Source: Escherichia phage NHEP1
DNA: 64,000 bases
Reading direction: 5' to 3' (one strand)
Sequence record: PQ511146.1
The notes below the pieces were generated by a model, which had not been told where the DNA came from, made no database searches, and worked only from the letters and a program-made list of their open reading frames with translations. Shown piece after piece: positions 1 to 30,471 of this stretch (position 1 is the stretch's first letter; each line of letters opens with the position of its first letter). A program made the translations under genes and the position numbers.

Positions 1-85
1 CTCATCTTAAAGCCCCCTTTTTCGCTTAGTTGAGACTAGTTTACTTTATTGATGGCCCTGGAGTCAAGGCCATCTAAAAATAAAC

Positions 86-490
86 TTAATAAGTTTTCAG
101 TACTTTACCGTCCAACCTGTCAAGCTGGATCTCAATAGCTGCAGAAAACCTATTGTACACCACGTCGCCCATGGAATCCAACCAGTCTATGACGTTATAC
201 ACCTGCTCTTTGTTCTTGCAGGTCCGGATCCGTTTCATGATGTAAGCCGGATCAATATTGGTACTTTCGTTGGTGTTCCCCTGTACCTGATTTGCCGTAT
301 TAGTTACATCTTTAATGGCCTTTACCACCACCTGGAAGGGCTTTAAGGTGCCTTTTGCGTTCATCTCACGCACTTTTGCGGCGCGGTTGTTATAGGTTAC
401 ACAACGGCGGCAAATGTTCACTAAGTGCATGTCAATAATTTTTTCATCGTTTGCCAGTTCGTTCATGATGCGGCGTACGTTCTTATTCAT
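86..490 (-). CDS. hypothetical protein (134 aa)
   Basis: ATG with AAGGA SD about 8 nt upstream; no recognisable motif. Confidence 0.6.
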   Translation of the reverse strand: MNKNVRRIMNELANDEKIIDMHLVNICRRCVTYNNRAAKVREMNAKGTLKPFQVVVKAIKDVTNTANQVQGNTNESTNIDPAYIMKRIRTCKNKEQVYNVIDWLDSMGDVVYNRFSAAIEIQLDRLDGKVLKTY

Positions 491-510
491 GATCTTTTTC
501 CTTTGTGTTG

Positions 511-533
511 GCGGGAAACATTCCCGCCTTTTG
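511..533. promoter_or_regulatory. GC-rich hairpin GGCGGGAA-aca-TTCCCGCC in 5'UTR of gene 86..490
   Basis: 8-bp inverted repeat seen in sequence; followed by T-rich tract on plus strand. Confidence 0.3.
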
Positions 534-538
534 TGATT

Positions 539-566
539 AGTTTACTTGAATTTTGCAGCGTGTCAA
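539..566 (-). promoter_or_regulatory. sigma70-like promoter (TTGACA-16-TAAACT)
   Basis: -35 consensus hexamer with acceptable -10 upstream of gene 86..490. Confidence 0.3.
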
Positions 567-572
567 CAATTT

Positions 573-971
573 TTATTCGTGGGCGCATGTTACAATGTGC
601 TTTTTATAGCCCAGGTGGTTAGCAAGTGCCGACAAAAACTCTTCTTCATAGATCCAGCCGTTGGCAGTGATCCCCATAGCATTTAATGCGCTCTCAAGTG
701 CTGCATTAGCTTTATCGTAACCGTGACCGCTCGCCTTCCCGCCAGTATAACCGTACTTATTGTTCTTGTTGTCGTGAATCCAAAAAACACAGTATTGAGT
801 GTTCCCGCTGGCGGCGGCATAATACCGGATCTCAGCTACTTCGTGCAAATTATTGTCATCGTCCAGGCCCACCAGATTATAAGCCTTGTAAAATCCACGA
901 TCACGGCGGCAGTTCTTGACATCAGAAAAAGAAAAGTCCGCATTATCAAAATTAAAGGTAGTGGTTTTCAT
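573..971 (-). CDS. hypothetical protein (132 aa)
   Basis: ATG with AAGAGGA SD 7 nt upstream. Confidence 0.6.
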   Translation of the reverse strand: MKTTTFNFDNADFSFSDVKNCRRDRGFYKAYNLVGLDDDNNLHEVAEIRYYAAASGNTQYCVFWIHDNKNNKYGYTGGKASGHGYDKANAALESALNAMGITANGWIYEEEFLSALANHLGYKKHIVTCAHE

Positions 972-1003
972 GATTTTATCCTCTTAGTGTCTTTTGTGCT
1001 TTT

Positions 1004-1032
1004 AGTGTATTTGGTGTCAGAATGTATGTCAA
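1004..1032 (-). promoter_or_regulatory. sigma70-like promoter (TTGACA-17-TACACT)
   Basis: consensus -35 with weak -10 upstream of gene 573..971. Confidence 0.3.
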
Positions 1033-1035
1033 TAC

Positions 1036-1233
1036 TTATTTTTTATTAAACCAGTGGTTGATCTGGCCTTTTGTCAGGGCGCAACGATTAAGCTGTTGCC
1101 GGGTGTAGCTCTGACCGCGACGGAATTTATAAAGGCCTTGCCCGTTGTTGATGGTTACGTCCACCTGGCAAATCATTTGATCGGTGACGGCCTGGCGAGT
1201 GTTGCGACGTACTTTAATTCCGTAGGCGTTCAT
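1036..1233 (-). CDS. hypothetical small basic protein (65 aa)
   Basis: ATG with GAGAGGA SD; R/K/Q-rich. Confidence 0.55.
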   Translation of the reverse strand: MNAYGIKVRRNTRQAVTDQMICQVDVTINNGQGLYKFRRGQSYTRQQLNRCALTKGQINHWFNKK

Positions 1234-1285
1234 GATTTTTATCCTCTCTGTTAATTAGTGTGGTGTTGTTCACCTTGCGAGGATA

Positions 1286-1313
1286 AGAATAACAGAACTA
1301 TCCGAGCTGTCAA
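1286..1313 (-). promoter_or_regulatory. sigma70-like promoter (TTGACA-16-TATTCT)
   Basis: consensus -35 upstream of gene 1036..1233. Confidence 0.3.
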
Positions 1314-1633
1314 CCATTAGTTAGAATTATTTTTTGGGCAGAATTCTCCAGCCGCCGCCACTGCCAGGTTAACCATCATTTTTTCGTACTCTTCTTTATG
1401 TTCCAACGCTCCCGCCATAGCCTTTTCAACCAGGGCGATAGCCTCAGCGTCATTAATCGCTACATTTTCCAGGGGGGATCCTATTACCTTTCATTTTTGT
1501 ACCTCTTCTTCAGTTGTTGCCTACCCTGCATAGGCCCACCAGGTTTGCAAGCCTTCATTCTCCCCTACCTGGTCAGTTAGGTCCTGCCAGGCTGGCCCCG
1601 CCAGGTTGCAACGGTTAGCGCATCAGGTTAGAA

Positions 1634-1647
1634 TTTTTTTTTTTTTT
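1634..1647 (+). repeat. homopolymeric T14 tract
   Basis: 14 consecutive T seen in sequence, immediately upstream of a TTGACA hexamer (possible UP element). Confidence 0.9.
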
Positions 1648-1654
1648 GAAAGTG

Positions 1655-1683
1655 TTGACAGCGGCCCCGCCAGGTGGCACAAT
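1655..1683 (+). promoter_or_regulatory. candidate plus-strand promoter (TTGACA-17-CACAAT) with upstream T-tract
   Basis: consensus -35, weak -10; no downstream ORF, would drive a non-coding transcript. Confidence 0.3.
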
Positions 1684-1754
1684 ATACCTATCGAAAGGAC
1701 GGCAGGCACCGGTGACGGGGGAGACAACCACCGGGGATGGGCGCTGCATAAAAT

Positions 1755-1773
1755 GAGAACGGTTATCATTATC
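1755..1773. promoter_or_regulatory. Fur-box-like site (GATAATGATAACCGTTCTC on minus strand)
   Basis: 11/11 contiguous match to the left half of the E. coli Fur consensus GATAATGATAATCATTATC, 16/19 overall. Confidence 0.35.
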
Positions 1774-1890
1774 ATTTAAAAATTTATGCAAAAAATCCTT
1801 GCTCTCTTTGTCCTGTGTGATACTATAATAACAAGCCGGGGCAACAGGGGCCGGGAGACAATCACCGGGGGTGCCTGTTATTCTGCAAAC

Positions 1891-1907
1891 GAGAATGATT
1901 ATCATTC
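1891..1907. promoter_or_regulatory. Fur-box-like perfect palindrome GAGAATGATTATCATTC
   Basis: 7-bp inverted repeat GAATGAT/ATCATTC; 14/19 to Fur consensus. Confidence 0.35.
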
Positions 1908-2029
1908 AAAATTCTAAATGAGAACTTCTCGCATTTCATAAATTTAATTAGCATGCTAATTACCTACCGTGACAATTCTATATAAAATAATACCTCCTTA
2001 AGTATTTCCATATACAAATTTTAAAAATC

Positions 2030-2210
2030 CATTTCCGAAAACGAAAAATCGCTTTCGTTCCCAAAAATTTCAGGTCGAGCGCCGGAACGATTTCCAGAAA
2101 ATCTGATTCAGAAAACGAAAAACAGATCGAGTACTGAGAAATTTATCGAGAAAAATTTTCAGAAAATTCAATCTTTGAAATGAAAAACAGATCGAGTACT
2201 GAGAGAGATG
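2030..2210. repeat. A-tract rich array with 23-bp perfect direct repeat GAAAAACAGATCGAGTACTGAGA (2117-2139 and 2182-2204)
   Basis: direct repeats 65 bp apart plus repeated GAAAACGAAAAA motifs; iteron-like. Confidence 0.6.
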
Positions 2211-2512
2211 TGCCTAAACTTCCTGATAATGATGGGCTTATTGTTATAAAAGGCCAGAAGTAAGTTGGGAAAGTTCTGGTAGATGGGTGAGAGTGTGTGC
2301 GGAAAATCTGGAACGGTGATTTGAAGTACGGTGCGAATGATAGAATGAGTAGCGCAGCTTATCGTGCCTGTCTTGAAAAAATCCATTTTAGTTTTCGATC
2401 CATTTTCTGATTTTCTAAGAATTTTAAAATATCCGACTAGGTAAAATATCAAAAGGAGGAAATCTATTTTAGAAACCCTCCTTATACTTGATGTGCCAGG
2501 GATTTTCAAGTA

Positions 2513-2842
2513 TCAACTATCTTTGTTTTTAGGCTTGTACATGCGTAGAGGTATAGTTTTTATAACACTCCATCTCCCCAGCCCTTCCCAGTTCCAGTTG
2601 TGGGCATGGTACCCGGTTATGCATGCACTGCTGGCGTGATCATAAGCATAAGAGAACGCTATGCGTAACAAACGAGGCCAGTCTTTCCATGGTTGTGGTC
2701 CGTAAGCTTTTCTCCAACACCGACACAAACTAAATGTCTCAAGAATAGGCAGGATAACAAATCCATACACCGCCACCAGAATGGTCAGCGCAATGATTGT
2801 CAGGAATACATACCCTGCAGTTGAAATAATGATCTCTGTCAT
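2513..2842 (-). CDS. hypothetical membrane protein (109 aa)
   Basis: ATG with AGGGGA SD; hydrophobic N-terminal helix; ATGA overlap with upstream gene. Confidence 0.55.
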   Translation of the reverse strand: MTEIIISTAGYVFLTIIALTILVAVYGFVILPILETFSLCRCWRKAYGPQPWKDWPRLLRIAFSYAYDHASSACITGYHAHNWNWEGLGRWSVIKTIPLRMYKPKNKDS

Positions 2843-3036
2843 TTGTCATCCCCTTTCTTACGGATATAGATGTGAGAGCCTGCTTGTACATAAATTTCCC
2901 GACCATCTTCTGCAAAGATGTGGAATACACGGTCACCTTCGTATTCAATACGAGATATCTTCATAACGGTCTTCCCACCCGGAATGCGGATCTCATCGCC
3001 TACAGCAATGTTCCATGCAGATTTAAGCTTAAACAT
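2839..3036 (-). CDS. hypothetical protein (65 aa)
   Basis: ATG 6 nt after AAGGAGG; track start GTG at 3042 sits directly on the SD. Confidence 0.55.
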   Translation of the reverse strand: MFKLKSAWNIAVGDEIRIPGGKTVMKISRIEYEGDRVFHIFAEDGREIYVQAGSHIYIRKKGDDK

Positions 3037-3274
3037 CGTCACCCTCCTTTGGGAACTTGAACTCTGGCATAGCCATATACGCTACAACAGGGTTGTGATC
3101 AAAGTAGAACTGACCATTAATTATCCCAGTTTTTTGCACATAGTCACCAGATCCTGCAAGAACAACCTCGCAAGCTCCGAAATCTACATTGCCATTCTCG
3201 TCAGCCATGGCTACGATATACTTTCCGAGAGGCATGTTTTTAACGCCGTCTACAAATGTCCACCCTTTGTTCAT
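3029..3274 (-). CDS. hypothetical protein (81 aa)
   Basis: ATG with GGAGA SD. Confidence 0.6.
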   Translation of the reverse strand: MNKGWTFVDGVKNMPLGKYIVAMADENGNVDFGACEVVLAGSGDYVQKTGIINGQFYFDHNPVVAYMAMPEFKFPKEGDDV

Positions 3275-3294
3275 ACTTTATCTCCTGCACTTTC

Positions 3295-3627
3295 TTAAGG
3301 TAACCAGTAAACAATCTCGCCTTTCAGTTCCATACCATTACCTACATAAATTTGCCAGCCATCCATCTTAGCTGCTGCAGGAGTAAAATCTTCAGAGCCT
3401 CTAACCTCTTTCCATGAGCCATAGTCTGGCTGCCAGATATAAAATCCACCTTCTTTGTCCCATGCGCAATACACCACGTTCAACCAGTTACCCATTGCAA
3501 CAATGGTGGGCCGTGGGAATAATACATCTACAGATGCGCAGCAATATCGGGTATCTTTTAAATTGCAATCCCAAAAGATGTCTGCCAGTGTGGCGGCGAT
3601 AGCTTTACGTCTTTCTAATGTTACCAT
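3295..3627 (-). CDS. hypothetical protein (110 aa)
   Basis: ATG start; operon context. Confidence 0.55.
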   Translation of the reverse strand: MVTLERRKAIAATLADIFWDCNLKDTRYCCASVDVLFPRPTIVAMGNWLNVVYCAWDKEGGFYIWQPDYGSWKEVRGSEDFTPAAAKMDGWQIYVGNGMELKGEIVYWLP

Positions 3628-3637
3628 GGTACGATAC

Positions 3638-3829
3638 TCACTTGTTGTTAAGAAGTTCTAAAACTTTCTGTTTTACTTTATCAAGATCTGTTGATTCAAA
3701 AACTGTGCGATATCCCCAACTTTGCCCATAGGAATGACTGCAATCACCGTAACACCATTGCTCAACCTGATAGTATTCAAGGAATGGGTGCTGTCTAACT
3801 ATGATACCGTCTCGATTAAAAATTACCAT
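3638..3829 (-). CDS. hypothetical protein (63 aa)
   Basis: ATG with GAGAGGGA SD. Confidence 0.55.
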   Translation of the reverse strand: MVIFNRDGIIVRQHPFLEYYQVEQWCYGDCSHSYGQSWGYRTVFESTDLDKVKQKVLELLNNK

Positions 3830-3860
3830 AATTTATCCCTCTCTGCTAGTTTATGTTTAT

Positions 3861-3888
3861 ATTATATACCGCAGTTTTCAGATGTCAA
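3861..3888 (-). promoter_or_regulatory. sigma70-like promoter (TTGACA-16-TATAAT)
   Basis: both hexamers consensus; intergenic, upstream of gene 3638..3829. Confidence 0.5.
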
Positions 3889-3892
3889 CCTT

Positions 3893-4087
3893 TTACAGGT
3901 TACTCCAGTATACTCGGCATTTACACTTCGGGCAATGAGGTTCTTTTATGTAATAACCGTCAGTCTTTGGAACACTTTTTGGTGCAGTTTTAAGATTGTA
4001 CCGAGTAAAGCAACGGAAGCAGGTTACCTCTCCTACCTGTTGATCGTTTATCCACTCGCCAGAGTAAAGCTCTTTCTTGTTTCTCAT
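3893..4087 (-). CDS. zinc-ribbon protein (64 aa)
   Basis: ATG with GGGGAGA SD; CxxC...CxxC; track GTG extension to 4144 is less likely. Confidence 0.5.
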   Translation of the reverse strand: MRNKKELYSGEWINDQQVGEVTCFRCFTRYNLKTAPKSVPKTDGYYIKEPHCPKCKCRVYWSNL

Positions 4088-4089
4088 AA

Positions 4090-4284
4090 TTATCTCCCCA
4101 AGCCTCTGCAATCTTCTACCAGAATCTCCAGCCAGAAAGCACACGGGAACACTTTGATGATTGAATCTTCACTCGGCTCGGAAGTTCTTTTTCCGTAGGG
4201 CAGGTAGAAATACCCTCCTGCAGATTCAAACATGGCTCCTTCTGTTGTATCTATCACAGCTAGAATTAAGATTTTAGTCTCCAT
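4090..4284 (-). CDS. hypothetical protein (64 aa)
   Basis: ATG with GGGGAG SD. Confidence 0.5.
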   Translation of the reverse strand: METKILILAVIDTTEGAMFESAGGYFYLPYGKRTSEPSEDSIIKVFPCAFWLEILVEDCRGLGR

Positions 4285-4313
4285 AGTGCTCCCCTGTCTT
4301 AATCGTTGTGGTG

Positions 4314-4342
4314 ACTATACCACCTTAAAATATAGCTGTCAA
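4314..4342 (-). promoter_or_regulatory. sigma70-like promoter (TTGACA-17-TATAGT)
   Basis: consensus -35 and 5/6 -10 upstream of gene 4090..4284. Confidence 0.5.
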
Positions 4343-4797
4343 CACTCTTTGTACTCCACCACGATAATATCTATATCAAAAGTGGCAAGGTTAATAATGT
4401 CCTCTACATGTTCCCACTTCAAACCGCCTATGCCGCACCCGATCTTAGGGATGTAGAATGGTAAAATCGACCCCTCAAATACTTCATTGACTCGCTCAAA
4501 TCCTTTCAGTATTGAGAAATATTCAGCATTAGGCCCTGGGTAGAACTGAGTATACAGATTTATTCCGTAGACAATACCTCTCGGAGATAAGTGCTCCCAG
4601 CGGGAGAACGCGCCCAGTTTACTTAGGCAACCGTGCATAGTCATTTTATCAGCTTCCAATGCTTGAGGGAACTCACGGGCAATCTGTTTTGCTACACCCT
4701 TACCCATTGTGTGGAAGCAGTTACAACCGTGGATCAGGTGACCATCACCGCTCTTAAAAAGGGAGATTAAATCTCCCTCTACAGTATCAATAATCAC
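4339..4797 (-). CDS. macro-domain (ADP-ribose binding/processing) protein
   Basis: IVIIDTVEGDL...HGCNCFHTMGKGVAKQI fits macro-domain N(x5)GxGVAxxI pattern; likely GTG start at 4797 after AGGAG, overlapping upstream stop; track ATG at 4878 lacks an SD. Confidence 0.5.
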   Translation of the reverse strand: MIIDTVEGDLISLFKSGDGHLIHGCNCFHTMGKGVAKQIAREFPQALEADKMTMHGCLSKLGAFSRWEHLSPRGIVYGINLYTQFYPGPNAEYFSILKGFERVNEVFEGSILPFYIPKIGCGIGGLKWEHVEDIINLATFDIDIIVVEYKEC

Positions 4798-5212
4798 GAT
4801 ATTCCAGCTCCTCTTCCACAATTTCAAAAAACTCAGTCCAGCACTGTGGCATATTGGAGTTACCGAAGTGGCTTTCATAGTAAAGGTTTTTACCGCTCGG
4901 AAGATAAAAATCTGTTACCTCATAAAATCCACAATCGTCGCACTCTCCCTCTTCAAACTTGGCCTTAACCTTAATGCCGAGGAAGGTGAAAAGTTTATGG
5001 ATATCTTCGGTCTCGAACTCCCAATTAATGTTGTTTTCCGCATCGGTGTAAAACTGGATCAGTAGGCCATCATCCATTTTTCCAAAATATTCTGTGAAGT
5101 AGCTTCCTTCCCAGAAGTCTTTGTGACAAATAATATCCATGCGCTTGCCCATAATAAAGGTGTGGGCGTTTCGTGCATCGTCACGAATCAGTTTTGGCAT
5201 TTCATAAATCAT
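4787..5212 (-). CDS. hypothetical protein (141 aa)
   Basis: ATG start; operon context. Confidence 0.6.
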   Translation of the reverse strand: MIYEMPKLIRDDARNAHTFIMGKRMDIICHKDFWEGSYFTEYFGKMDDGLLIQFYTDAENNINWEFETEDIHKLFTFLGIKVKAKFEEGECDDCGFYEVTDFYLPSGKNLYYESHFGNSNMPQCWTEFFEIVEEELEYRDY

Positions 5213-5277
5213 CGTAGTTCTCCAGGATCAATAGGTGGTGCTACAGGAAGATCATAAAACATGGCGATCACATTCTC

Positions 5278-5475
5278 TTACGCAGGGATTGCTTCAAACA
5301 GGCCGTTATCGATACCATCCTTCAAGTAAAGATTATACTCTATGTCAGTATCTGTGTAAAGGGCAGCATCTAGCATTCTATCTGTTAGTCCATCCATTGG
5401 GTGGAGAAACCACCACCCACGCCAGTCAAAGTAACAACCTGGTGCATCTTCTCTCACACGGATTCGATAAATCAT
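5278..5475 (-). CDS. hypothetical protein (65 aa)
   Basis: ATG with AGGAGG SD. Confidence 0.45.
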   Translation of the reverse strand: MIYRIRVREDAPGCYFDWRGWWFLHPMDGLTDRMLDAALYTDTDIEYNLYLKDGIDNGLFEAIPA

Positions 5476-5571
5476 GGGCAGTGGCCTCCTGTTAGTTACA
5501 CATCCCAGTTTTCTTCGTTCATTACATCCTCCAGCTCAACAAGGTTATAATTGCACACCTTACAACCCGTG

Positions 5572-5988
5572 TCAACAGAAAACTTCAACAAATTCTTCCA
5601 CAGTTTTAATGTCGTGGGAAAAAGGTTTGCGGCTATAACGGGCAATAGCACTGTCAACCACCGCCCGGTACTCCAAATCTTCAGAATATTTCATGAAGCA
5701 TTGCAACGTCTCTGGACAGATAGCCAGATAGCTCCACCACCCCTCTTCAGATTGGTAGTCAAATCCCATACTCTCTAGCCACGAAGCGTATACACCTGCA
5801 CCTTCCAGCCAGTGAGTATTTTCATCAAGGAACTTGTTCACAGTCATGTGAGCTTCTAAGCATTTATCCAACTCTTTTCCGTTAACCAGCCACGCACTGA
5901 CAGTGGCGCATCCAAGGTCCACAGATTGGGTTGATAGATTGTATTGGTCATAGTTCTCAGGTTTAACAATGATATCTTCTAATGTCAT
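5572..5988 (-). CDS. hypothetical protein (138 aa)
   Basis: ATG with AGAGAGGA SD 7 nt upstream. Confidence 0.6.
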   Translation of the reverse strand: MTLEDIIVKPENYDQYNLSTQSVDLGCATVSAWLVNGKELDKCLEAHMTVNKFLDENTHWLEGAGVYASWLESMGFDYQSEEGWWSYLAICPETLQCFMKYSEDLEYRAVVDSAIARYSRKPFSHDIKTVEEFVEVFC

Positions 5989-6005
5989 TTTTCAGTCCTC
6001 TCTAT

Positions 6006-6035
6006 ACAAAAATGCCCCACCCTTTCGGGCAGGGC
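6006..6035 (-). terminator. rho-independent terminator (GCCCUGCCC-GAAA-GGGUGGGGC + U-run)
   Basis: 9-bp stem with GNRA tetraloop followed by AUUUUUG on minus strand, just downstream of gene 6051..7277. Confidence 0.6.
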
Positions 6036-6050
6036 TATGTTGACTAGATG

Positions 6051-7277
6051 TTAAAAAGGTATGTCATCATCAAAGGCGTACTGTGCCGGATTCTGATCCA
6101 TCGGGTCGTCTTCCGCATCATCTACAGGAGGAGCGTCTACAGTGTTTTGCTGTGGGGCGGCTTCCTGTTTGGCAGCTTGAGGCTCTTGATGGTCAGTGAC
6201 TCCAGCACCGTTCTTGATCCAATCATACAACGGTTCAGCAAGATTAGTCAAGACATCTTTTGCCTCTGCAGTAATTGCTACTGCAAAATCATCAACTTTC
6301 GTTTTCTTGTCAATACGGCGACAAGCGTTCAATACCGCATTACCAACACTGGCACCTACTTCATCTTCAGTTCGGTTAGTGGCTTGAGCGTACTCTTTCT
6401 TAAGCTCGATGGTGACCACGTGCAGTGTTTTAGCCACATCTAAAGGACTGTCAATCTTAAACCCGCGATCCAGGATGATCTGCAATGCATTGATACTGTG
6501 CCCTGTCTCTACACCGATGGGGTCGTAAGAGGATTTACGCTTACCACCAGAACCTTGTGTACCGTTCTCTGCTTTAGGCGGGTAGGCCTTGAAGCCGCTG
6601 ATAATATTCCCGGTGTCTTTGTCAACAATAGCTGCAACACGACCACCTACCACCAGGTCTTTAAGCTGCTCATCAGAGACAACCATAGCACCTTCACCAA
6701 TCTTGTGATCATTGACAGTAACCACGTTGCCAACAATCTGAGTCACATCGCCATAGATGCGTAAAACGTCCTGATTGGCATTCTGCTGAGGTTTCTGCTT
6801 CTGGCCTTGTGATTGTGCACCTTGTTGCTGTTTTTGCTGCTGAGTCGCTGCTGGAGCCTCTCCTGCACCCAGCTTGACCATCTTAGCCAGGGAGCCTTTG
6901 TAATAGATCTTACCGTTATGCTCGTTTGCCTTCAAAGGGATATTTACGATCCATCCTGGCGTTACAGTTTCCCACTTGTCATCAATTTTAACAGAGACAG
7001 AGTCTTGATGACCCGGTTTAAGCAGCTTATCACCCATACTGATCCAAACTTCTTCACCACCTTGAAGCAGGTTATCAGAGGAATCCAGTTCAGAAATCAG
7101 TAAAGAGATGGTGTGGCTGGATTCAATTTTCTTACCTTGCCACACAGTGGTTTTAATACCTGTTGTAGGATCAGCACCTTTGATAGGCTTGATGCTGACA
7201 CGTTTAATCATGCCGTGAGCCAGTAAAACAGTTTCACGCGGATTCATCGGGTTAGCGAATTGTTGAATAACGCTCAT
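6051..7277 (-). CDS. putative ssDNA-binding / replication accessory protein with SSB-type C-terminal tip
   Basis: 408 aa; Q/G-rich low-complexity linker; ends ...QYAFDDDIPF, matching the E. coli SSB tip (DDDIPF); N-terminal fold not identified. Confidence 0.45.
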   Translation of the reverse strand: MSVIQQFANPMNPRETVLLAHGMIKRVSIKPIKGADPTTGIKTTVWQGKKIESSHTISLLISELDSSDNLLQGGEEVWISMGDKLLKPGHQDSVSVKIDDKWETVTPGWIVNIPLKANEHNGKIYYKGSLAKMVKLGAGEAPAATQQQKQQQGAQSQGQKQKPQQNANQDVLRIYGDVTQIVGNVVTVNDHKIGEGAMVVSDEQLKDLVVGGRVAAIVDKDTGNIISGFKAYPPKAENGTQGSGGKRKSSYDPIGVETGHSINALQIILDRGFKIDSPLDVAKTLHVVTIELKKEYAQATNRTEDEVGASVGNAVLNACRRIDKKTKVDDFAVAITAEAKDVLTNLAEPLYDWIKNGAGVTDHQEPQAAKQEAAPQQNTVDAPPVDDAEDDPMDQNPAQYAFDDDIPF

Positions 7278-7642
7278 TATTTATCTCCTTGTTCTTCGTT
7301 AGTGTTTGCCGTGTGTGCAAACCCTGCTTGAATTAATTTGTCCTGAACTTGAGCCAACAGGCCCATTGCAAAACTTGTGGTCCCAGAGAGGGCCATCAGC
7401 ATATCTCGTTGTTGAGCTACCCAACCTAAGGCATAGTCCAAACGACGATATTTTTCTTCTTCACGCAGAGCCTGGAATAATTGTTCAGCCTCTGGCTGTT
7501 GTGTAAGCTCCTGAAGTCTTCCCATGAAAGAAGAAAGCACTAGCAGAAGAGACACTTGATCTTTACTTAACCCTAAGAAAAATTCTTGAGGTTGTTCTTG
7601 CTCGTTCATCGCAACCGACGCTTGATCGTTCATTTGTTCCAT
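7277..7642 (-). CDS. hypothetical protein (121 aa)
   Basis: ATG 8 nt after GGAG; track TTG extension to 7753 covers hairpin and promoter-like sequence. Confidence 0.5.
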   Translation of the reverse strand: MEQMNDQASVAMNEQEQPQEFFLGLSKDQVSLLLVLSSFMGRLQELTQQPEAEQLFQALREEEKYRRLDYALGWVAQQRDMLMALSGTTSFAMGLLAQVQDKLIQAGFAHTANTNEEQGDK

Positions 7643-7686
7643 TATGGAATCTCCGATTTTATTTGAACAACATAGAAGGAGACACC

Positions 7687-7715
7687 ATTTTAGCATCTCC
7701 TTCTGCAAATTACAA
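7687..7715 (-). promoter_or_regulatory. candidate promoter (TTGTAA-17-TAAAAT) overlapping an inverted repeat
   Basis: hexamers derived from minus-strand reading; GAAGGAGA/TCTCCTTC inverted repeat overlaps. Confidence 0.3.
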
Positions 7716-7725
7716 CAGGTATTTG

Positions 7726-7971
7726 TTAGCCAATTACTTCGAAAGTACCCCAACTCCCGTTCAGCAGGCAGGTGATCGGATCACCATCATCGTCAATTAT
7801 TTCAAAGTTTTCAACATCCAGAATATGGTCATCGAACACAATGCTCTTATCGCCACCACCAGAAATAACAGCGTATTCCTTACCTTGTGTTAGGTTCTGG
7901 CAACCTTTGCCGCCGAAACCAACTTCAACACAACGTACTTTCTGTCCTGCGCGAGCAACTACTCCAGCCAT
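7726..7971 (-). CDS. hypothetical protein (81 aa)
   Basis: ATG start; operon context. Confidence 0.55.
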   Translation of the reverse strand: MAGVVARAGQKVRCVEVGFGGKGCQNLTQGKEYAVISGGGDKSIVFDDHILDVENFEIIDDDGDPITCLLNGSWGTFEVIG

Positions 7972-7988
7972 CTTAAGGTCTCCTGATA

Positions 7989-8291
7989 TTAATCGTCAAG
8001 TTCAAAATAGATTTTAACAGCTTCATCAAAGATTGGAATCCCGATGTTGTTGATAAGCTGCCAAACTACCATATCTTTTCCTGGATCTGGGAGAATGTCA
8101 ACCTTTCTCCATGCGCTATATATCCAGTTCGGACCGCCTTCTGCACTAACTGGTAGATTTTCACCAGCTTCTTGTAAATACTTATACAGCAAAAGGTATT
8201 CTGGGTACTCTAGAACACTGTCCTCTGTAGTATATAGCAGTTCACGGTATACTTTCAAGAATCCTGTTGGGTTGATGTTTTCAGTCTTCAT
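7989..8291 (-). CDS. hypothetical protein (100 aa)
   Basis: ATG 8 nt after AGGAGA; track start 8309 lacks an SD. Confidence 0.5.
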   Translation of the reverse strand: MKTENINPTGFLKVYRELLYTTEDSVLEYPEYLLLYKYLQEAGENLPVSAEGGPNWIYSAWRKVDILPDPGKDMVVWQLINNIGIPIFDEAVKIYFELDD

Positions 8292-8682
8292 TTGCTGCTT
8301 CTCCTGCATTCATCAGATCTGCCATAGCGTCACCAACGAAGAGGACAACCACGTCGTTGACAGCGTCAGCATCATCTTTATTGATGTTGCTGAATTTGGG
8401 GCACACTGCAATGACCATATAGACCCCGTTGCCCAACTGAACAGTGCGTGTAGTGCACATTAGTGTGGTGCTTGTGCCTTCTTTAAAGGCAAATCCTTGC
8501 AGACGTTCTTCCAGAGAGTCACCTGTGGATTTCAACAAGGCAAGATCGCCCAATGCGTAGGTAGTGTCCTCATAGGTCAGTCCAGAGGTCAATGTTGCCT
8601 TTCCATCAGAAACTATAATAACCCCATCGGCACCGTCAAGCTCAGAGGCTTCAAAGATATTAATATCCCAAATGTTTTTCAT
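8281..8682 (-). CDS. hypothetical protein (133 aa)
   Basis: ATG after GAGGAA; overlaps upstream stop. Confidence 0.55.
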   Translation of the reverse strand: MKNIWDINIFEASELDGADGVIIVSDGKATLTSGLTYEDTTYALGDLALLKSTGDSLEERLQGFAFKEGTSTTLMCTTRTVQLGNGVYMVIAVCPKFSNINKDDADAVNDVVVLFVGDAMADLMNAGEAANED

Positions 8683-8942
8683 CACGCTTCCTCGTCATCT
8701 AATGGGTTGAAGATTTCACCGAAGTATTCTAAGACTTCCAGCTCACGGGTGGTGCAGAAAACACAGTCCCCGTTGTCATCTTCGATAACGGCCTCTTTAC
8801 CAAGAACATCAACTTCAAATTCGTCGTTTAACAGAACGGAACCTGTGTAAACTTTATCTGCCGTGCAGTCCCGAAAAGCAGAGTCCTTCTCCAAGTAGTC
8901 TGGCTTAACCTTGGCTTTAATTCGTTGATATTGTTTGGTCAT
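8682..8942 (-). CDS. small protein, paralog family A (86 aa)
   Basis: ATG downstream of promoter; shares AF(R/K)DCT...DD(N/E)GD.V(F/W)CT motif with gene 9006..9260. Confidence 0.5.
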   Translation of the reverse strand: MTKQYQRIKAKVKPDYLEKDSAFRDCTADKVYTGSVLLNDEFEVDVLGKEAVIEDDNGDCVFCTTRELEVLEYFGEIFNPLDDEEA

Positions 8943-8973
8943 TGCTGTGGTCCCCTTTCGTTTTGATAGGGCC

Positions 8974-9002
8974 ATTATATTAGGCCCTATCGCTATTGTC
9001 AA
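8974..9002 (-). promoter_or_regulatory. consensus sigma70 promoter (TTGACA-17-TATAAT)
   Basis: verified through translation of the track ORF: its TTG 'start' is the -35 hexamer; spacer and -10 lie within palindrome ATAGGGCC...GGCCCTAT. Confidence 0.6.
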
Positions 9003-9005
9003 GTA

Positions 9006-9260
9006 TTAATGCTCAGGTTTTACAAAAACTACTTCGTTAACAGTGCACCAGACAGAATCCCCTTCATCATCTTTAAAGGTAAGACACTGGGCCGAGTTTT
9101 CCAACTCATCAAGTTCTTCTTGTGATAAATAGGTCCCTTCTTCCAGAAGGGCTTTTACCAGAGGGTTCTCACAAAACTCTGCTTCATAAATTGCACCGAG
9201 TGTGCAATCTTTAAAAGCTCGGTCATTTGCAACGCATTCTGGCTTCAAAGTAATTTTCAT
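9006..9260 (-). CDS. small protein, paralog family A (84 aa)
   Basis: ATG start; paralogous to gene 8682..8942. Confidence 0.55.
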   Translation of the reverse strand: MKITLKPECVANDRAFKDCTLGAIYEAEFCENPLVKALLEEGTYLSQEELDELENSAQCLTFKDDEGDSVWCTVNEVVFVKPEH

Positions 9261-9310
9261 CTTGGCGGTCTCCTTAATTATTTAAAATCAACGCTCTGTC
9301 TGTGTGGGGT

Positions 9311-9339
9311 ATCTTACATCTACCCCAACTTGTTGTCAA
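9311..9339 (-). promoter_or_regulatory. sigma70-like promoter (TTGACA-17-TAAGAT)
   Basis: consensus -35 overlapping stop of upstream gene; same -10 as the plus promoter at 29441. Confidence 0.45.
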
Positions 9340-9707
9340 CGACTATTTTCAATCATCCACCAAGGATCGAGATAAGTTTGTTGACTTTTTGCCCACTGGC
9401 AAACTTCATTGTACATCTGGATCTCTTTGTCCGTCAGTTCACGAATAGGCTCATCTATACCCTCATTTTTGTGGTAATCCCAGTCGGCATCGATTTCCCA
9501 CAACCATGACTTACGATCTTCACGTTTACGCACACAGAAGTCCCCAGGACGGCCTGCCAGTGCATTTAGGAACTCGTTCTCCGCTCGCTCCTGGAGAATA
9601 CTAAGGAGCAAAACGTTGGAGCATGACCGTAAAATATGCTTCAGCTCACAATCATCGATCTCAACTTCAATACGTTGCTTGACTGTGTGGGTACCTTTTA
9701 CTAACAT
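9336..9707 (-). CDS. hypothetical protein (123 aa)
   Basis: ATG 4 nt after GAGGAGG; track TTG start at 9734. Confidence 0.55.
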   Translation of the reverse strand: MLVKGTHTVKQRIEVEIDDCELKHILRSCSNVLLLSILQERAENEFLNALAGRPGDFCVRKREDRKSWLWEIDADWDYHKNEGIDEPIRELTDKEIQMYNEVCQWAKSQQTYLDPWWMIENSR

Positions 9708-9717
9708 TCTACCTCCT

Positions 9718-9912
9718 CTAGACGAACTCTGCAAGGGTTGTGTTGTTCACTGCACCGCAGTAGATGGAGTATCCCAACCCGTTAGGGTGTAGAAACCACG
9801 GCACACCTTGATCATCCTTCACGTATACATCTCCATTTTCCGTAAAGGGCCAATACTCTTCTCCAAGGGTAAAATACCTACTCATACCTTCAGCCAGATA
9901 CTTTACTTTCAT
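9718..9912 (-). CDS. small protein, paralog family B (64 aa)
   Basis: shares G..Y.V...D..G..WF/WY motif with the next two genes. Confidence 0.5.
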   Translation of the reverse strand: MKVKYLAEGMSRYFTLGEEYWPFTENGDVYVKDDQGVPWFLHPNGLGYSIYCGAVNNTTLAEFV

Positions 9913-10136
9913 AGATCCTCTTCAACAGCTACAAACTTGGCAAGTAGGGTGGTTCCATAGATATGATACTCACCGTTTGCCAGATGGGAGATAAACCAGG
10001 CAACACCGTCCTCGTCTTCGATCATATTGTTTCTGCGATCCTCGTCGTAATAAACCTTGTAGACCTTACCTTCTTCAAAGAATGATAGGTCTGTCATCTT
10101 CTCTTCTACAAATGTCGCTTTAACCAAAGTTGTCAT
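9909..10136 (-). CDS. small protein, paralog family B (75 aa)
   Basis: ATGA overlap with neighbours; paralog motif. Confidence 0.5.
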   Translation of the reverse strand: MTTLVKATFVEEKMTDLSFFEEGKVYKVYYDEDRRNNMIEDEDGVAWFISHLANGEYHIYGTTLLAKFVAVEEDL

Positions 10137-10417
10137 TGATCTGCCTCCTTCTTGTTGAGCCGGAACACTGCAATAATAGCATTTCCAAGATGCAGTGTCA
10201 AATCATTTCCCAGATACCATAACATTCCACGGTCATCTTTAATGAAAGGGTAACAATCCGGTGCCTTCCAGACATTATACACTTTGCCGACCTGAAAGAA
10301 ATCAGGCCCTGTTGGAATTTTAGTACCGGGCCATACTTGGGACACCTGAACGCATTCTACCTGCATAATGACAGGGATAGTCATGGAGGTAAATGTTTTT
10401 GTTGGTTCTACTACCAT
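10133..10417 (-). CDS. small protein, paralog family B (94 aa)
   Basis: ATG after GAGAGGAGA; track extension to 10507 would overlap the polymerase 3' end. Confidence 0.5.
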   Translation of the reverse strand: MVVEPTKTFTSMTIPVIMQVECVQVSQVWPGTKIPTGPDFFQVGKVYNVWKAPDCYPFIKDDRGMLWYLGNDLTLHLGNAIIAVFRLNKKEADQ

Positions 10418-10466
10418 AAAAGTCTCCTCTCTGTCTAACAACACTTCCGTGTGTTGATAGTTTACA

Positions 10467-13400
10467 TTAGTGACAATCACCCCAGTTACGACCGCACAAG
10501 TATTCACCTGTGATCTGGAACGGAACGCCCATCATTTTAGAAGCCTGCCAGAAGCAATGCACCACCATTTCGCCCACAGGGCTCCAGATAAGCTCAAGCT
10601 TTCCGTCATCATTCAAGATAGGATCGTATACCGTATTTCCATCCTTGTCAACCACTTCGTTTCCGTCCTCATCTTTGCGTGCCTTTTTGTACTTATGACC
10701 GTCGAACACATGAAGTTTAGCCTCTTGTTGGGCTTTAAATGTTTCCAGCTCTTCAATTGTGTCGAAGGTGTATACGGTTTTATACTTAGGTGTGTCAGGC
10801 ACTTGAAGCTGATATTCGTCATGGTAATAGATAATACGACGAACACCCTCATCATACCATCCACGCTTCACCATCTGGTGGTGCATGAGGATTCCGACCA
10901 AGTCGCACAACGATGCACCGCCATTTTGCTGATATGCATTAAGCAAAGAGTGTTTAGAGCGGGTCCAAATGGCATGCCCGTCAAAAGAGTAGATAAATTT
11001 CTTACCTGTTGCTTCCCAGAATTTCTCCAGATCCTCTTTACGCCCCTTAAGGCCCGGGTTGGCATCCCAGAGAGCATCAATTACTCTCTGTCCAAGTTCT
11101 GGAGAGATATCTAGCATATCTGCAACTTTATCTTTTTGTGCCCCGTACATAACCCCATATGTGACAGGCTTACCATCGTTACGGGAAATCTCCTTGCCTG
11201 CTACAGAAGAGTAAGCTTTGGCGTTATTACAGTTACCGCACACTGCCACTTTACCATTCCTTCTCACAATGATTGCTCCAGAAGGGACGGTAACGCAATA
11301 AACCAAAGAACCGCTCACCTCGACAGACTCTTTAGATAGTGTCAGCAACCCTGCTCTCTGTTTGCTACCAATCGTGATTCTGTGCTGTACGGAACGACCT
11401 TTTTTGTGAATCGCCACCGTATTATTCCGTAAACCACACTGAGTAGCCAGCGCAGACACAACCTCTACAGATTTCTTCCTGCACCCGGCCTGAGAGTAGT
11501 AGGCAACTTTTCCACCTTCGGAAGATACCCACCCGTCCCAGTTAGATAAAGAAGCTATAAACAGGTTTTTAGATTCTTTATCAAGGTCCATCAGGTTGTA
11601 GGTGAAATCCTTATTGCTGTCCAAAAACTCAAATACCCAGGACGGAACGTGGAATTGGAACCTTCTCGCCAGTAAGCCCCCTTTTGTGGTTTTCCCGCTC
11701 TGCTCTACATAACTAAGGCTTAGAGCAGAAAAAGTATCTAAAAGCGTTGCAACTTTTCTGCCCTTCCCGACCTGAATCCTGCACACGATGCTGCCGTCCT
11801 TATTTGTATGCAAGTGCCCATCATCGTGAATAGCAATAAGCAAATTAACCTGGGCAGGAGATAAGGTTGTATTCCCATAAAACTCTGCCGCATGGATAAA
11901 CCTTCTTCCTGAATTAGACCCTTTACCTGCTTTCAGGTCTTTTGCCAAATCTTCAAACAATTTATTGCTTCTGTGATCCACGGTCAGCATCCTGTGTTGA
12001 TCTGTAACCATAAAATCCACACTGCTGTTGTGGAAATGATACATATCCCCACAATAACTACGCTTAACGTAATTTAATGGAGTAACAAGGTTCATCGACG
12101 AGGTGTTGTGATCGTACTGGAACACCTGTGTTCCCGGATCAAGATCTTCAAACCTCACCCACCCTTTCTCCGTGAGAATTTGTGTATCTCCTGAATAACA
12201 GTGTGCATCGCCGTTACTTACAACATCATAATACAGACCGTTGTCAAACTCAAAGGCACCCCAGGCCCCGATGAGCTGCTCTAAGTTGGACCCGTCAATA
12301 CCGATCTCAAAGTATCCTGGAGGAACACCCCACAGACTACGCATCTCTTTACCCATAACCACTTTAGGAGATGGTTTAGGCATGTTTGCACAAATACTAT
12401 GTTTCTGTCTGGAAGTGTTTGTTAATCCAGAACTTTTAGCAGGAAGCTTGTGGTCAATCTTCAAACGTGGATGATTAAGAAGACCAGTATCAACCTTATC
12501 TTCCTTGATTGGATCAAGGACCGATCTGCGGTTTCGCAATGATAACCACAAAACGATATCTTTAGCCATCTCTCCGTTCAATTTTTCAAGATTCGGGCAC
12601 AGGTGTCCAAACGTATCTTTCAGTTGCGGAGAAGTAATAAGCGCTCTGGCTTTTCTACGTATCTTCCCAAACACTTCCTTTTTAATCCTTTCTGAGTTAG
12701 GGAAGCTTCGGAACTTATGCACAGTTGTCTGGAACTTGGCATCAGTTTTGTTCCAGAAGTTGATAATTAGATCACAATACTCTGACTCCAAAAGCTCGTC
12801 CATATATGCATATACTCGTGCATCAACATCTGCATCAGGTAAAGCTTTCTTCTTGCTGTCTTTAGTTACATCTTTAGTTCTCCACATTGTTGGGAGCCAA
12901 CCAGCACTGATCAGGTATCGCTTGATGTCGTCCTGATTGCTGATTTTCATAGGTATCTTGCAGTCAGGCATTCGCTTCTGCTGTAGGTCACTTATCGCCT
13001 GATCCATCAGCTCTTTAGGTAAAGGGTGTGGTGTAGAAGTTCCTTTGATATACCCCCTCAAGAAATCAGCCATCTTATCGGGGTCTTTACAGCCCATCTC
13101 TTCACACCATTTTATCCCCATCTTACTTACATCCCCTGTGGAGGTAAATGCTCGCTTAGGAGGAGCTTTGAACTCTAAAGCACTCATGTCCACAGGGTAG
13201 CCAAGCTTGTCTTTTAACCATTTCCAACCATTATTGGAGATTGTCCCATCTTGGTTAAACGGCTTTTCAGGGAACTTAGGCCGCTGAGACATTGATAACT
13301 CTTTTAAAGGAAGTTGTGGTTCAACACGATCAGCGATCTCTTTCATCCACGCATCGCAACGGTCACGTAAAGCAATAGCCCCATCTATGTCGAAATACAC

Positions 13401-18049: not shown

Positions 18050-18351
18050 TAGAAGCCTCCTACTTCTTCAGCAAATGCTGCCGCTGTCGTCGCTGCATCC
18101 AGATAGGACTCTAGTTCACGTGCTGCACGTTTGTAAATCGAGTGGCGCAGATCGTTTGGTAACTGGTGAAAATCCACCTCTTCTCCGTTGTGGTAAACAT
18201 GCACATCAGTAATCTGTCTAAATCCATAATAATCAACATCAGAATCACGGCACTCCAGATCTGGCAACTGGACAACTGCCTGAGCCTCTACAGTGAGCAT
18301 ATCGTCAAGTTCGAAATCGATTTCAAAAGTGTATGGTTTATAACGCTTCAT
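18049..18351 (-). CDS. hypothetical protein (100 aa)
   Basis: ATG with AAGGAGAA SD. Confidence 0.55.
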   Translation of the reverse strand: MKRYKPYTFEIDFELDDMLTVEAQAVVQLPDLECRDSDVDYYGFRQITDVHVYHNGEEVDFHQLPNDLRHSIYKRAARELESYLDAATTAAAFAEEVGGF

Positions 18352-18410
18352 TATTCGGTGTTCTCCTTATCTTGTGTGAAGAGTAGACCTCTCCTTCGAT
18401 ATTTTAAATA

Positions 18411-30467: not shown

Positions 30468-30471
30468 TGAC

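Follow-up and report, generated by a model that had tools for sequence, protein, structure and literature searches.

A Tk.4/AdfM-family macrodomain in the rV5-like Escherichia phage NHEP1: translation start, glutamine-type active site and probable role against host DarT2

A reading frame on the minus strand of Escherichia phage NHEP1 (record PQ511146.1; the whole 64,000-nucleotide stretch analysed is termed the window) raises the questions of where its translation begins, to which kind of macrodomain its product belongs and which ADP-ribose linkage the product would remove during infection. An earlier note, made from the sequence alone, had read the product as a macro-domain protein that might reverse ADP-ribosylation in host defence (for example, by DarTG), and had preferred a GTG at 4797 to the ATG at 4878 of the initial gene call. 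The features concerned are the following:

4339..4797, minus strand: macrodomain gene, 152 aa; GTG start 4797-4795, TGA stop 4341-4339; PHROG 335
4339-4878, minus strand: first gene call from ATG 4878, 179 aa; contains ...WNIVIIDTVEGDLISLFKSGDGHLIHGCNCFHTMGKGVAKQI...
4798..4878, minus strand: 27-codon 5' extension of the ATG-4878 call, judged spurious; lies wholly within the upstream gene
4808..4813, minus strand: Shine-Dalgarno (SD) sequence GAGGAG, 10 nt 5' of GTG 4797; AGGAG occupies 4812-4808
4787..4797, minus strand: 11-nt overlap GTGATTATTGA between the macrodomain start and the upstream stop TGA 4789-4787
4787..5212, minus strand: upstream gene, 141 aa, PHROG 8157, function not assigned

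Translation from GTG 4797, giving a 152-aa product, is supported by comparative sequence evidence as well as by the ribosome-binding signal. The duplex with the anti-SD sequence amounts to -8.3 kcal/mol before GTG 4797 and to -3.4 kcal/mol before ATG 4878, the background on the minus strand being -3.2 +/- 2.6 kcal/mol, with about the top 8% of positions at or below -7.0 kcal/mol. The near-identical ECP26 protein and the 91%-identical BP9 protein in GenBank have the same GTG start and the same 459-nt CDS, while an ATG occupies the homologous position in all four of the more distant relatives (L006-L009; 70-79% identity), where purine-rich SD-like runs are also found 5' of the ATG. The IMG/VR scan comprised five loci, a number that suffices for this start-codon comparison but not for surveying synteny broadly. 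The duplex, the GenBank starts and the ATG of the relatives agree with the earlier proposal of a GTG start preceded by AGGAG, and the near-background value at ATG 4878 with its remark that this codon lacks an SD sequence.

It is scarcely credible that the true product is instead the 179-aa form that begins at ATG 4878, or one that begins at some other upstream codon, with the GTG as an internal Val codon. Although the 39 codons 5' of the GTG stay open in NHEP1 and its closest relatives, and upstream ATGs are used in some annotations (the gene track of the window; a 498-nt CDS in the related record WM), the ATG at -27 is missing from L006-L009, and L007, L008 and L009 carry in-frame stops 4-13 codons 5' of the conserved ATG, have no alternative start and place that ATG exactly where NHEP1 has its GTG. 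In L006, the frame stays open for 30 codons and a TTG is retained upstream, but the ATG at -27 is lost. Further, no SD sequence precedes ATG 4878, and its first 27 codons fall entirely inside the upstream gene (4787-5212), as had been pointed out earlier; the homologues, each of about 150 aa, all begin MII... The AF2 fold is already complete from residue 2 of the 152-aa form. Starts at TTG 4821, TTG 4827 and the ATG at -13 (record WM) were dismissed on the comparative and SD evidence.

The overlap with the upstream gene, described in the earlier note, was found to comprise 11 shared nucleotides that include the upstream TGA (4789-4787). The stretch 4787..4797 is a probable site of translational coupling, by which initiation of the macrodomain gene would be tied to termination of the upstream gene, and the two genes are probably carried on one transcript. 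Two sigma-70-like sites flank the pair:

5332..5360, minus strand: TTTACA-17-TATAAT, an 11/12 match to the consensus; candidate promoter for the 141-aa and macrodomain genes
4314..4342, minus strand: TTGACA-17-TATAGT with TG, an 11/12 match to the consensus; overlaps the macrodomain stop

The second of these points towards the next small gene (4090-4284). Positions 1-10500 of the window hold 36 sigma-70-like promoter sites against 20.1 +/- 4.6 expected (both strands together), the majority on the coding strand. The source phage is a Vequintavirus (an rV5-like E. coli myophage), and the leftward non-structural block that holds the macrodomain gene also carries rIIA/rIIB, helicases, a primase-helicase and a DNA polymerase; the block is presumably early or middle in expression. 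The 141-aa upstream gene, for which Pfam and PADLOC returned no match, is not a conserved partner of the macrodomain gene; it adjoins that gene in close relatives only, is displaced or absent in L007-L009, and in Krischvirus ECD7 the PHROG 8157 gene lies about 9 kb away from tk.4.

Judged from its sequence and its predicted structure, the 152-aa protein is a stand-alone ALC1-like macrodomain, of the class that includes TARG1, DarG, SCO6735 and Poa1p. The Pfam profile PF01661 (Macro) was matched over positions 1-118 of 118 at 31.3 bits (cut-off 22; E 2.1e-7), and the macrodomain signal as a whole greatly exceeds chance. The AF2 model of the 152-aa form (pLDDT 97, pTM 0.91) gave a Foldseek probability of 1.00 and TM values of 0.75-0.85 to TARG1, DarG and Poa1p, consistent with the macro fold (three-layer alpha/beta/alpha). 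The top matches were TARG1 (TMt 0.85), the DarG proteins of T. aquaticus and M. tuberculosis, Poa1p, BT1257 and SCO6735; the search against the PDB gave 175 matches at E <= 0.001 and, among the matches listed, all were either macrodomains or designed proteins with macro-like scores. The macro-domain identity claimed in the earlier note is upheld by these results together with membership of PHROG 335, and the structure prediction for which that note had called gave the macro fold, a non-macro outcome not being seen.

The ALC1-like class is assigned because the nearest proteins by both sequence and structure belong to it, and not to the MacroD-type, PARG-like or viral Mac1 domains. A profile search of PDB sequences returned SCO6735 (5e-18), MtbDarG (1e-17), BT1257 (2e-17), TARG1 (5e-17) and Poa1p (1.4e-14), with MacroD-type and viral Mac1 (coronavirus) domains at about 2e-3; Foldseek ranks the macrodomain classes in the same order.

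In NCBIfam and PADLOC, the sole matches were to the macrodomain part of DarG. The NCBIfam model NF048014 (DarG) scored 44.1 bits, where the equivalog cut-off is 250, over profile positions 3-143 of 338, and the PADLOC DarG profile was matched over positions 9-141 of 329; the two-domain architecture of DarG (macrodomain plus C-terminal DarT-binding domain) is absent from the 152-aa protein. A darT gene was not found beside the macrodomain gene, the neighbours being small phage genes with neither a Pfam nor a PADLOC match (the PADLOC scan covered three of them), and none is annotated in related genomes. Identity as a DarG antitoxin was rejected on the score below cut-off, the missing DarT-binding domain, the missing catalytic Lys (K80 of T. 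aquaticus DarG) and the lack of an adjacent darT. A split DarG, in which the 141-aa gene would supply the DarT-binding half or act as an obligate partner, was rejected on the lack of any Pfam or PADLOC match and on the non-conserved adjacency.

At the position of the catalytic Lys, the protein differs from DarG and TARG1. Two codons are of interest:

4720..4722, minus strand: Asn26 codon; invariant across homologues
4546..4548, minus strand: Gln84 codon of the NLYTQ motif; position of the catalytic Lys in DarG and TARG1

Profile alignments to 5e3b, 5m3i and 4j5r place Gln84 opposite the Gln of the NMIGQ motif of SCO6735 and BT1257, where DarG and TARG1 carry their Lys (K80 and K84, respectively). 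The NLYTQ Gln is invariant in 92/92 sequences; N26, G34 and G120 are likewise invariant across the 92 homologues, with G32, G122 and G125 nearly so, the glycines belonging to two Gly-rich loops. H23 and N26 correspond to H24 and N27 of SCO6735 (His-x-Cys-Asn motif), Asn26 being the equivalent of DarG N22, SCO6735 N27 and PhiKZ AdfM N23 (PMC13309987, PMC9411070). The TARG1 dyad Lys84/Asp125 is absent, since the Lys is replaced by Gln84 and the Asp of PRIGCGLDRLQW by Gly, giving PKIGCGIGGLKW. By these alignments, the protein is a Gln-type (SCO6735-like) member of the ALC1-like macrodomains. Comparison with relatives gives dN/dS values of 0.13-0.25, indicating purifying selection. In SCO6735, Gln85 is essential (Q85A and Q85E are inactive), and the enzyme strips thymidine-linked ADP-ribose and rescues cells from DarT, an activity killed by Q85A (PMC9411070). 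Krischvirus ECD7 carries a natural Q84K variant.

Apart from the class, the family can be named, as the similarity searches identify the protein as a member of the Tk.4/AdfM family (PHROG 335). PHROG 335 was matched at E 5.9e-61 by the NHEP1 protein and at 1.3e-65 by T4 Tk.4, and BLASTP aligned the two proteins over 150/152 residues at 41% identity (E 7e-43). The Krischvirus Tk.4 proteins (ECD7, Whisky) are 70% identical over the full length, the ECD7 gene standing at the syntenic tk/tk.4/vs locus. Knockout of tk.4 renders T4 sensitive to DarTG2, and the gene has been named adfM (preprint, bioRxiv 10.1101/2025.11.20.689424). The earlier idea that defence-related ADP-ribosylation (DarTG) would be reversed matches the sole experimental data on the family, those on T4 tk.4/adfM. 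The most likely function is that of a DNA ADP-ribosylhydrolase with an anti-DarTG2 role in rV5-like phages. The full reading, namely a stand-alone ALC1-like Tk.4/AdfM macrodomain that starts at GTG 4797 and acts as a DNA ADP-ribosylhydrolase countering host DarT2, is considered rather probable. In the literature, no experiments on a Vequintavirus against DarTG2 were found, and a challenge with DarTG2 is not described in the HIDEN-SEQ study of Bas54 (Vequintavirinae). DarTG2 defence becomes apparent in M9-glucose at 30 C or under sub-MIC chloramphenicol, and T5 is sensitive to it.

According to the proposed mechanism, host DarT2 would attach ADP-ribose to thymidine in single-stranded phage DNA, and the macrodomain protein would bind that ADP-ribose and hydrolyse the glycosidic bond, allowing replication to continue; the phage would, in effect, carry its own copy of the enzymatic half of the antitoxin. 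Catalysis would resemble that of SCO6735, in that Asn26 together with an essential Gln84 would hold the distal ribose and an activated water in place, and the Lys-dependent chemistry of DarG and TARG1 would not be used. Against this explanation, the support from T4 is genetic, and a protein 41% identical to T4 Tk.4 need not share its specificity. Moreover, the ALC1-like class is promiscuous in its substrates, proteins being further targets of SCO6735 and TARG1, and ADP-ribose-1''-phosphate that of Poa1p; homology therefore leaves the substrate unfixed.

Among the alternatives, it is unlikely, though worth weighing, that the protein mainly hydrolyses ADP-ribose linked to protein or RNA, with DNA not the main substrate, and that it reverses the modification of phage or host proteins or of mRNA by other host ADP-ribosyltransferase defences or toxins, or tunes a phage NAD-dependent enzyme. 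Sirtuin-macrodomain pairings are known, and a Sir2-like protein is annotated in a related Vequintavirus genome; nevertheless, that gene lies about 50 kb off and is unlinked, and the related genome WM annotates no ADP-ribosyltransferase. TARG1 and SCO6735, the nearest relatives with solved structures, act both on DNA adducts and on ADP-ribose joined to Glu in proteins (PMC9411070), whereas the only known phenotype of the family is the DarTG2 sensitivity of T4 without tk.4.

A small-molecule enzyme, either a Poa1p-like ADP-ribose-1''-phosphate phosphatase or an O-acetyl-ADP-ribose deacetylase engaged in the clean-up of NAD metabolites in infection, appears doubtful. The labels "phosphatase", "Poa1p-like" and "O-acetyl-ADP-ribose deacetylase" occur in PHROG 335 and in several GenBank records, but these names are transferred annotations; Poa1p is significant by sequence (1.4e-14) and by structure (Foldseek E 6e-9), yet it is a weaker sequence match than SCO6735, DarG and TARG1 (about 1e-17). 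Related genomes annotate PNK, RNA ligase and a Sir2-like protein, and NAMPT- or PRPP-synthetase-like genes stand beside some homologues, but no putative partner gene adjoins the macrodomain gene in NHEP1, and a small-molecule activity would leave the DarTG2 phenotype of T4 tk.4 unexplained. A link to NAD salvage or to a phage ADP-ribosyltransferase is a weak rival, as WM annotates no ART, NADAR, NAMPT or PRPP-synthetase and only the distant Sir2-like gene. Some homologues in other phages (H55, H65, H67) do adjoin NAD-salvage-type genes (NAMPT-/PRPP-synthetase-like), a hint that part of the Tk.4/AdfM family may work in a metabolic setting.

That the protein is a non-catalytic binder, which sequesters ADP-ribose-derived immune signals or blocks DarT by binding without hydrolysis, is highly improbable. 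The catalytic Lys of DarG and TARG1 is absent, and catalytically inactive forms of SCO6735, DarG and TARG1 can still inhibit DarT in vitro by interacting with it (PMC9411070); however, the equivalent Gln is catalytically essential in SCO6735, a very active hydrolase, Asn26 is invariant, the Gly-rich loops are conserved and the C-terminal DarT-binding domain is missing.

With DNA ADP-ribosylhydrolase activity against host DarT2 retained as the preferred reading, a broader and quite speculative proposal may be added, for which confidence is low. Tk.4/AdfM macrodomains of the Gln type, which occur in about 5% of sequenced phage genomes, might constitute a distinct lysine-independent, water-mediated eraser of broad spectrum, acting on DNA thymidine as well as on the RNA or protein targets of other ADP-ribosylating defences, such that one small early gene would disarm several systems; the ECD7 Q84K variant would then reflect an easy switch between chemistries.

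The gene itself is already annotated (as "macro domain protein" in near-identical GenBank records), and its family is very common among phages. For annotation, it should be called from GTG 4797 (152 aa) and named a Tk.4/AdfM-family macrodomain, probable DNA ADP-ribosylhydrolase, while the "phosphatase" name and the 179-aa model should be dropped. If the preferred reading is true, intrinsic resistance to DarTG2 is predicted for the rV5-like phages, a group with candidates for phage therapy, as is their sensitisation by the loss of this one gene. A second large group of E. coli phages would thereby join the carriers of an antitoxin-like enzyme, in a phage family with the SCO6735-type Gln active site instead of the DarG-type Lys.

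Among known systems, T4 Tk.4 (AdfM) and the Krischvirus Tk.4 proteins are alike in length (about 152-155 aa), in being stand-alone macrodomains of PHROG 335 and in sharing the NLYTQ, HGCNC and IGxGIG motifs with the NHEP1 protein. Both tk.4 and the NHEP1 gene have small non-structural genes around them, and each overlaps the preceding gene at its stop codon. They differ in phage group (Straboviridae as against Vequintavirinae) and in neighbour (the vs gene rather than the PHROG 8157 gene), and the anti-DarTG2 role is known genetically for T4 only. SCO6735 (Streptomyces coelicolor) and BT1257 (Bacteroides), the top PDB profile matches, have His23, Asn26 and Gln84 in common with the phage protein and likewise lack the Lys/Asp dyad of TARG1, but they are cellular proteins of about 22-23% identity, and the K89 position of SCO6735 near the mobile loop is not kept in the NHEP1 protein (QFYPGP vs QHGMK). 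Human TARG1 (OARD1/C6orf130) is the best structural match (Foldseek E 2e-10, TMt 0.85) and of the same ALC1-like class, but has Lys84/Asp125 where the NHEP1 protein has Gln84 and Gly, at 23-24% identity.

The DarG2 macrodomain (T. aquaticus 5M31/5M3E, M. tuberculosis 5M3I) shares the fold (TM about 0.75), the Asn equivalent to N22 and the presumed substrate; however, DarG2 has a C-terminal DarT-binding domain and Lys80, whereas the NHEP1 protein consists of the macrodomain only, with Gln84. AdfM of the chimallivirus PhiKZ (gp104), likened here by description, is also a phage-borne, stand-alone DarG2-like macrodomain with the same proposed role, and it counters DarTG2 by taking ADP-ribose off DNA (PMC13309987). 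With N23 and K78, PhiKZ AdfM is of the Lys type, and it is taken up into the phage nucleus, whereas the NHEP1 protein is of the Gln type and belongs to a nucleus-less phage.

The gene on the minus strand at 4339-4797 (152 aa) had been proposed in the earlier note to encode a macro-domain protein, and this identity was confirmed by Pfam, PHROG, AlphaFold2 and Foldseek; the structure prediction suggested there as a check gave a macro fold, with DarG among the Foldseek matches. Assigned by sequence to Pfam Macro, the protein covers the whole PF01661 profile at 31.3 bits (gathering threshold, 22 bits) and matches PHROG 335 with an E-value of 6e-61. The AlphaFold2 model, obtained from a family alignment of 92 homologues, has a mean pLDDT of 97 and a pTM of 0.91, and its first strand begins at residue 2. 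Foldseek against the PDB returned TARG1 (E 2e-10, TM 0.78/0.85), the DarG macrodomains of T. aquaticus and M. tuberculosis, Poa1p, BT1257 and SCO6735, all with a probability of 1.00. A profile search of PDB sequences gave SCO6735 (5e-18), M. tuberculosis DarG (1e-17), BT1257 (2e-17), TARG1 (5e-17), T. aquaticus DarG (3e-15) and Poa1p (1e-14), with coronavirus Mac1 at ~2e-3 at most. Since SCO6735, DarG, TARG1, BT1257 and Poa1p are the best matches in both searches and Mac1 trails so far behind, the protein belongs to the ALC1-like macrodomain class.

Across the family alignment, N26, G34, A36, N80, Q84, P117 and G120 are invariant, while H23, G24, C27, M31, G32, Y82, T83, G88, I119, G122 and G125 are nearly so. 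HMMER aligns N80-L-Y-T-Q84 with N-M-I-G-Q of SCO6735 and BT1257, N-F-P-T-K of DarG and L-I-T-K of TARG1, an alignment that places Gln84 at the position of the catalytic lysine (Lys80 of DarG, Lys84 of TARG1). Furthermore, Asp125 of TARG1 is replaced by Gly, whereas His24, Asn27 and Lys34 of SCO6735 correspond to His23, Asn26 and Lys33, and the Gln84 arrangement is that of SCO6735 (Gln85). In SCO6735 activity depends on this glutamine (both Q85A and Q85E are inactive), the proposed mechanism is water-mediated and lysine-independent, and the enzyme efficiently strips DarT-made ADP-ribose from DNA thymidine and rescues cells from DarT (PMC9411070). Gln is present in all 92 aligned homologues and in the Tk.4 protein of phage Whisky (NLYTQ; L014:1501-1956). 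The nearly identical Tk.4 of Krischvirus ECD7 carries Lys at the catalytic position (NLYTK; L015:2398-2853, minus strand, = NC_041936 51397-51852; identical to the copy at L009:1501-1956), a natural single-nucleotide switch (Q84K) to the DarG/TARG1-type residue.

Megablast of 3500-6000 matched 150 phage records, the best being Escherichia phages vB_EcoM-ECP26 and B9-1 (98.9% identity), rV5-like myophages of ~136 kb in the genus Vequintavirus. Sixteen 'Campylobacter phage' records of 128-140 kb with Campylobacter jejuni as stated host (for example, MG065658, MG065661 and MG065682) are ~92-94% identical to the Vequintavirus region of the window; either the host assignment seems questionable or rV5-like coliphages had contaminated the stocks. 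With tblastn, homologues were detected in 2802 of 50,697 phage records, among them hundreds of T4-like phages in which the homologue adjoins vs. Several unrelated phages carry it directly beside annotated nicotinamide phosphoribosyltransferase or ribose-phosphate pyrophosphokinase genes, such NAD-reconstitution-type neighbours being found in Acinetobacter phage Liucustia (H55), Vibrio phages Ceto (H65) and Achelous (H67), and H80; this hints that, for some family members, ADP-ribose erasing is tied to the recycling of NAD.

T4 Tk.4, itself of PHROG 335 and with NLYTQ, shares 41% full-length identity with the protein (E 7e-43). Identity rises to 70% with Tk.4 of ECD7 and Whisky, encoded at a syntenic tk / tk.4 / vs / regB locus; by homology the window protein is assigned to the Tk.4/AdfM family (PHROG 335). 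In a 2025 preprint, tk.4 was the sole T4 gene depleted from a transposon library on a DarTG2 host, a clean knockout rendered T4 sensitive to DarTG2, and the gene was renamed adfM (10.1101/2025.11.20.689424). AdfM of PhiKZ belongs to the Lys type, with N23 and K78 (PMC13309987). A literature search found no experiment on any Vequintavirus orthologue; a library of Bas54 (Vequintavirinae) was made in the preprint, which describes no DarTG2 challenge of that library (10.1101/2025.11.20.689424).

The protein is probably a stand-alone, antitoxin-like DNA ADP-ribosylhydrolase that sustains replication in DarTG2 hosts. DarT2 would place ADP-ribose on thymidine in single-stranded phage DNA; the macrodomain protein would bind the adduct and hydrolyse it through Asn26 and Gln84 in the manner of SCO6735, and its removal would allow phage replication to continue. 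De-ADP-ribosylation of protein or RNA is a rather unlikely alternative function. Less probable still is a small-molecule enzyme of the Poa1p or O-acetyl-ADP-ribose type, the origin of the 'phosphatase' label; matched records read 'macro domain protein', 'O-acetyl-ADP-ribose deacetylase' or 'phosphatase'. That the protein is a non-catalytic binder is very improbable, and that its true form is the 179-aa product is hardly credible in view of the start-codon evidence. The features concerned, all on the minus strand, are as follows.

4339-4878, minus strand: open reading frame in its ATG form, 179 aa, from ORF calling; the sequence includes IVIIDTVEGDLISLFKSGDGHLIHGCNCFHTMGKGVAKQI
4797-4795, minus strand: in-frame GTG, 27 codons 3' of the ATG
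4813-4808, minus strand: Shine-Dalgarno GAGGAG, with a 10-nt spacer before the GTG
4787-5212, minus strand: upstream gene, 141 aa, PHROG 8157, with its TGA stop at 4789-4787

The reading frame, GTG, AGGAG and overlap with the upstream stop described in the earlier note were all found in the sequence where the note places them, and its preference for GTG 4797 is supported by relatives, homologue N-termini and length, fold, and the Shine-Dalgarno duplex. The homologous codon is ATG in all four relatives L006-L009 (70-79% protein identity), and the ATG at -27 is missing from each. In-frame stops lie 13, 4 and 4 codons upstream in L007, L008 and L009, with no other start there; L006 retains a 30-codon open frame with a single upstream TTG. 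Family-wide, homologues begin MII(D/K)... and are ~150 aa long, and the modelled macrodomain fold is complete without the 27-codon extension. The anti-Shine-Dalgarno duplex is -8.3 kcal/mol before GTG 4797 and -3.0 before two upstream TTGs; before ATG 4878, said to have no Shine-Dalgarno, it is -3.4, about the minus-strand background (-3.2 +/- 2.6). In GenBank, ECP26 and BP9 have a CDS of 459 nt, exactly the GTG-4797 form, and the related Vequintavirus WM (PQ014731) uses another upstream ATG (498 nt).

The 27 additional codons lie wholly within the 141-aa gene, and the GTG form shares 11 nt with its 3' end (GTGATTATTGA) because of the TGA at 4789-4787, making translational coupling plausible. 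The 141-aa gene was rejected as a conserved partner, as it adjoins the macrodomain gene in close relatives only; its homologue is located elsewhere in L008 and in Krischvirus. The protein, which has a CDDC motif, occurs only in Vequintavirus (91-100% identity) and Krischvirus (~37%, away from tk.4), and Pfam and PADLOC gave no family or defence-model match. The macrodomain gene evolves under purifying selection (dN/dS 0.13-0.25). At codon 18 (4744-4746, minus strand) it has Asp (KSGDGH), with Ala (KSGAGH) in all Vequintavirus-type relatives examined (L001-L003, L005-L008) and Asn in Krischvirus L009; this strain-specific change lies in a surface loop of the structure model and is probably neutral.

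The gene sits in a leftward-transcribed non-structural block of, in downstream order, MoxR ATPase, rIIA and rIIB, helicases, DNA methylase, primase-helicase, DNA polymerase (10467-14213) and then small genes without assigned function. In 1-10500, 36 sigma-70-like promoter matches were found against 20.1 +/- 4.6 expected (both strands), the majority on the minus strand. Individual elements include:

5360-5332: sigma-70-like site upstream of the 141-aa gene
9002-8974 and 3888-3861: perfect 12/12 sigma-70 sites
6035-6014: strong terminator-like hairpin

The dense matches, perfect sites and hairpin suggest that host RNAP drives numerous short transcription units among these small genes, and early expression of the macrodomain gene may reasonably be inferred from its block and the over-represented matches. 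The MoxR-type ATPase gene at 25659-26843 (minus strand; ECP26 18314-19498, offset 7345) gave nothing in Pfam beyond a sub-threshold AAA_14 match. Its counterpart by annotation alone, bas54_0063, likewise labelled MoxR ATPase, was reported, together with one other gene, to be required for overcoming the predicted defence system DS-28 (10.1101/2025.11.20.689424). WM annotates a Sir2-like protein (113338-114099), RNA ligase (114455-115372) and polynucleotide kinase (30276-30749), with no ADP-ribosyltransferase, NADAR or NAMPT; the Sir2-like gene, ~50 kb away, is a conceivable functional partner of the macrodomain. The window ORF 34338-34817, taken as the kinase counterpart, had no Pfam match.

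Database entries for near-identical proteins already carry the name 'macro domain protein' and the identical start, the family ranks among the accessory genes most often found in large phages of Gram-negative bacteria, and a role against DarTG2 has been described for T4; the observation is right but unremarkable. Added here are the confirmed start codon, the assignment of the active site to the Gln (SCO6735-like) type and the testable prediction that DarTG2 resistance of rV5-like phages is due to this gene. In NCBIfam and PADLOC, the only match was to the macrodomain part of DarG (44 bits; profile positions 3-143 of 338; equivalog cut-off, 250 bits). Identity as a DarG antitoxin was rejected, as the protein scores below that cut-off and is without the DarT-binding domain and the catalytic Lys, and no adjacent darT was detected; it is instead likened to the enzymatic half of DarG2.
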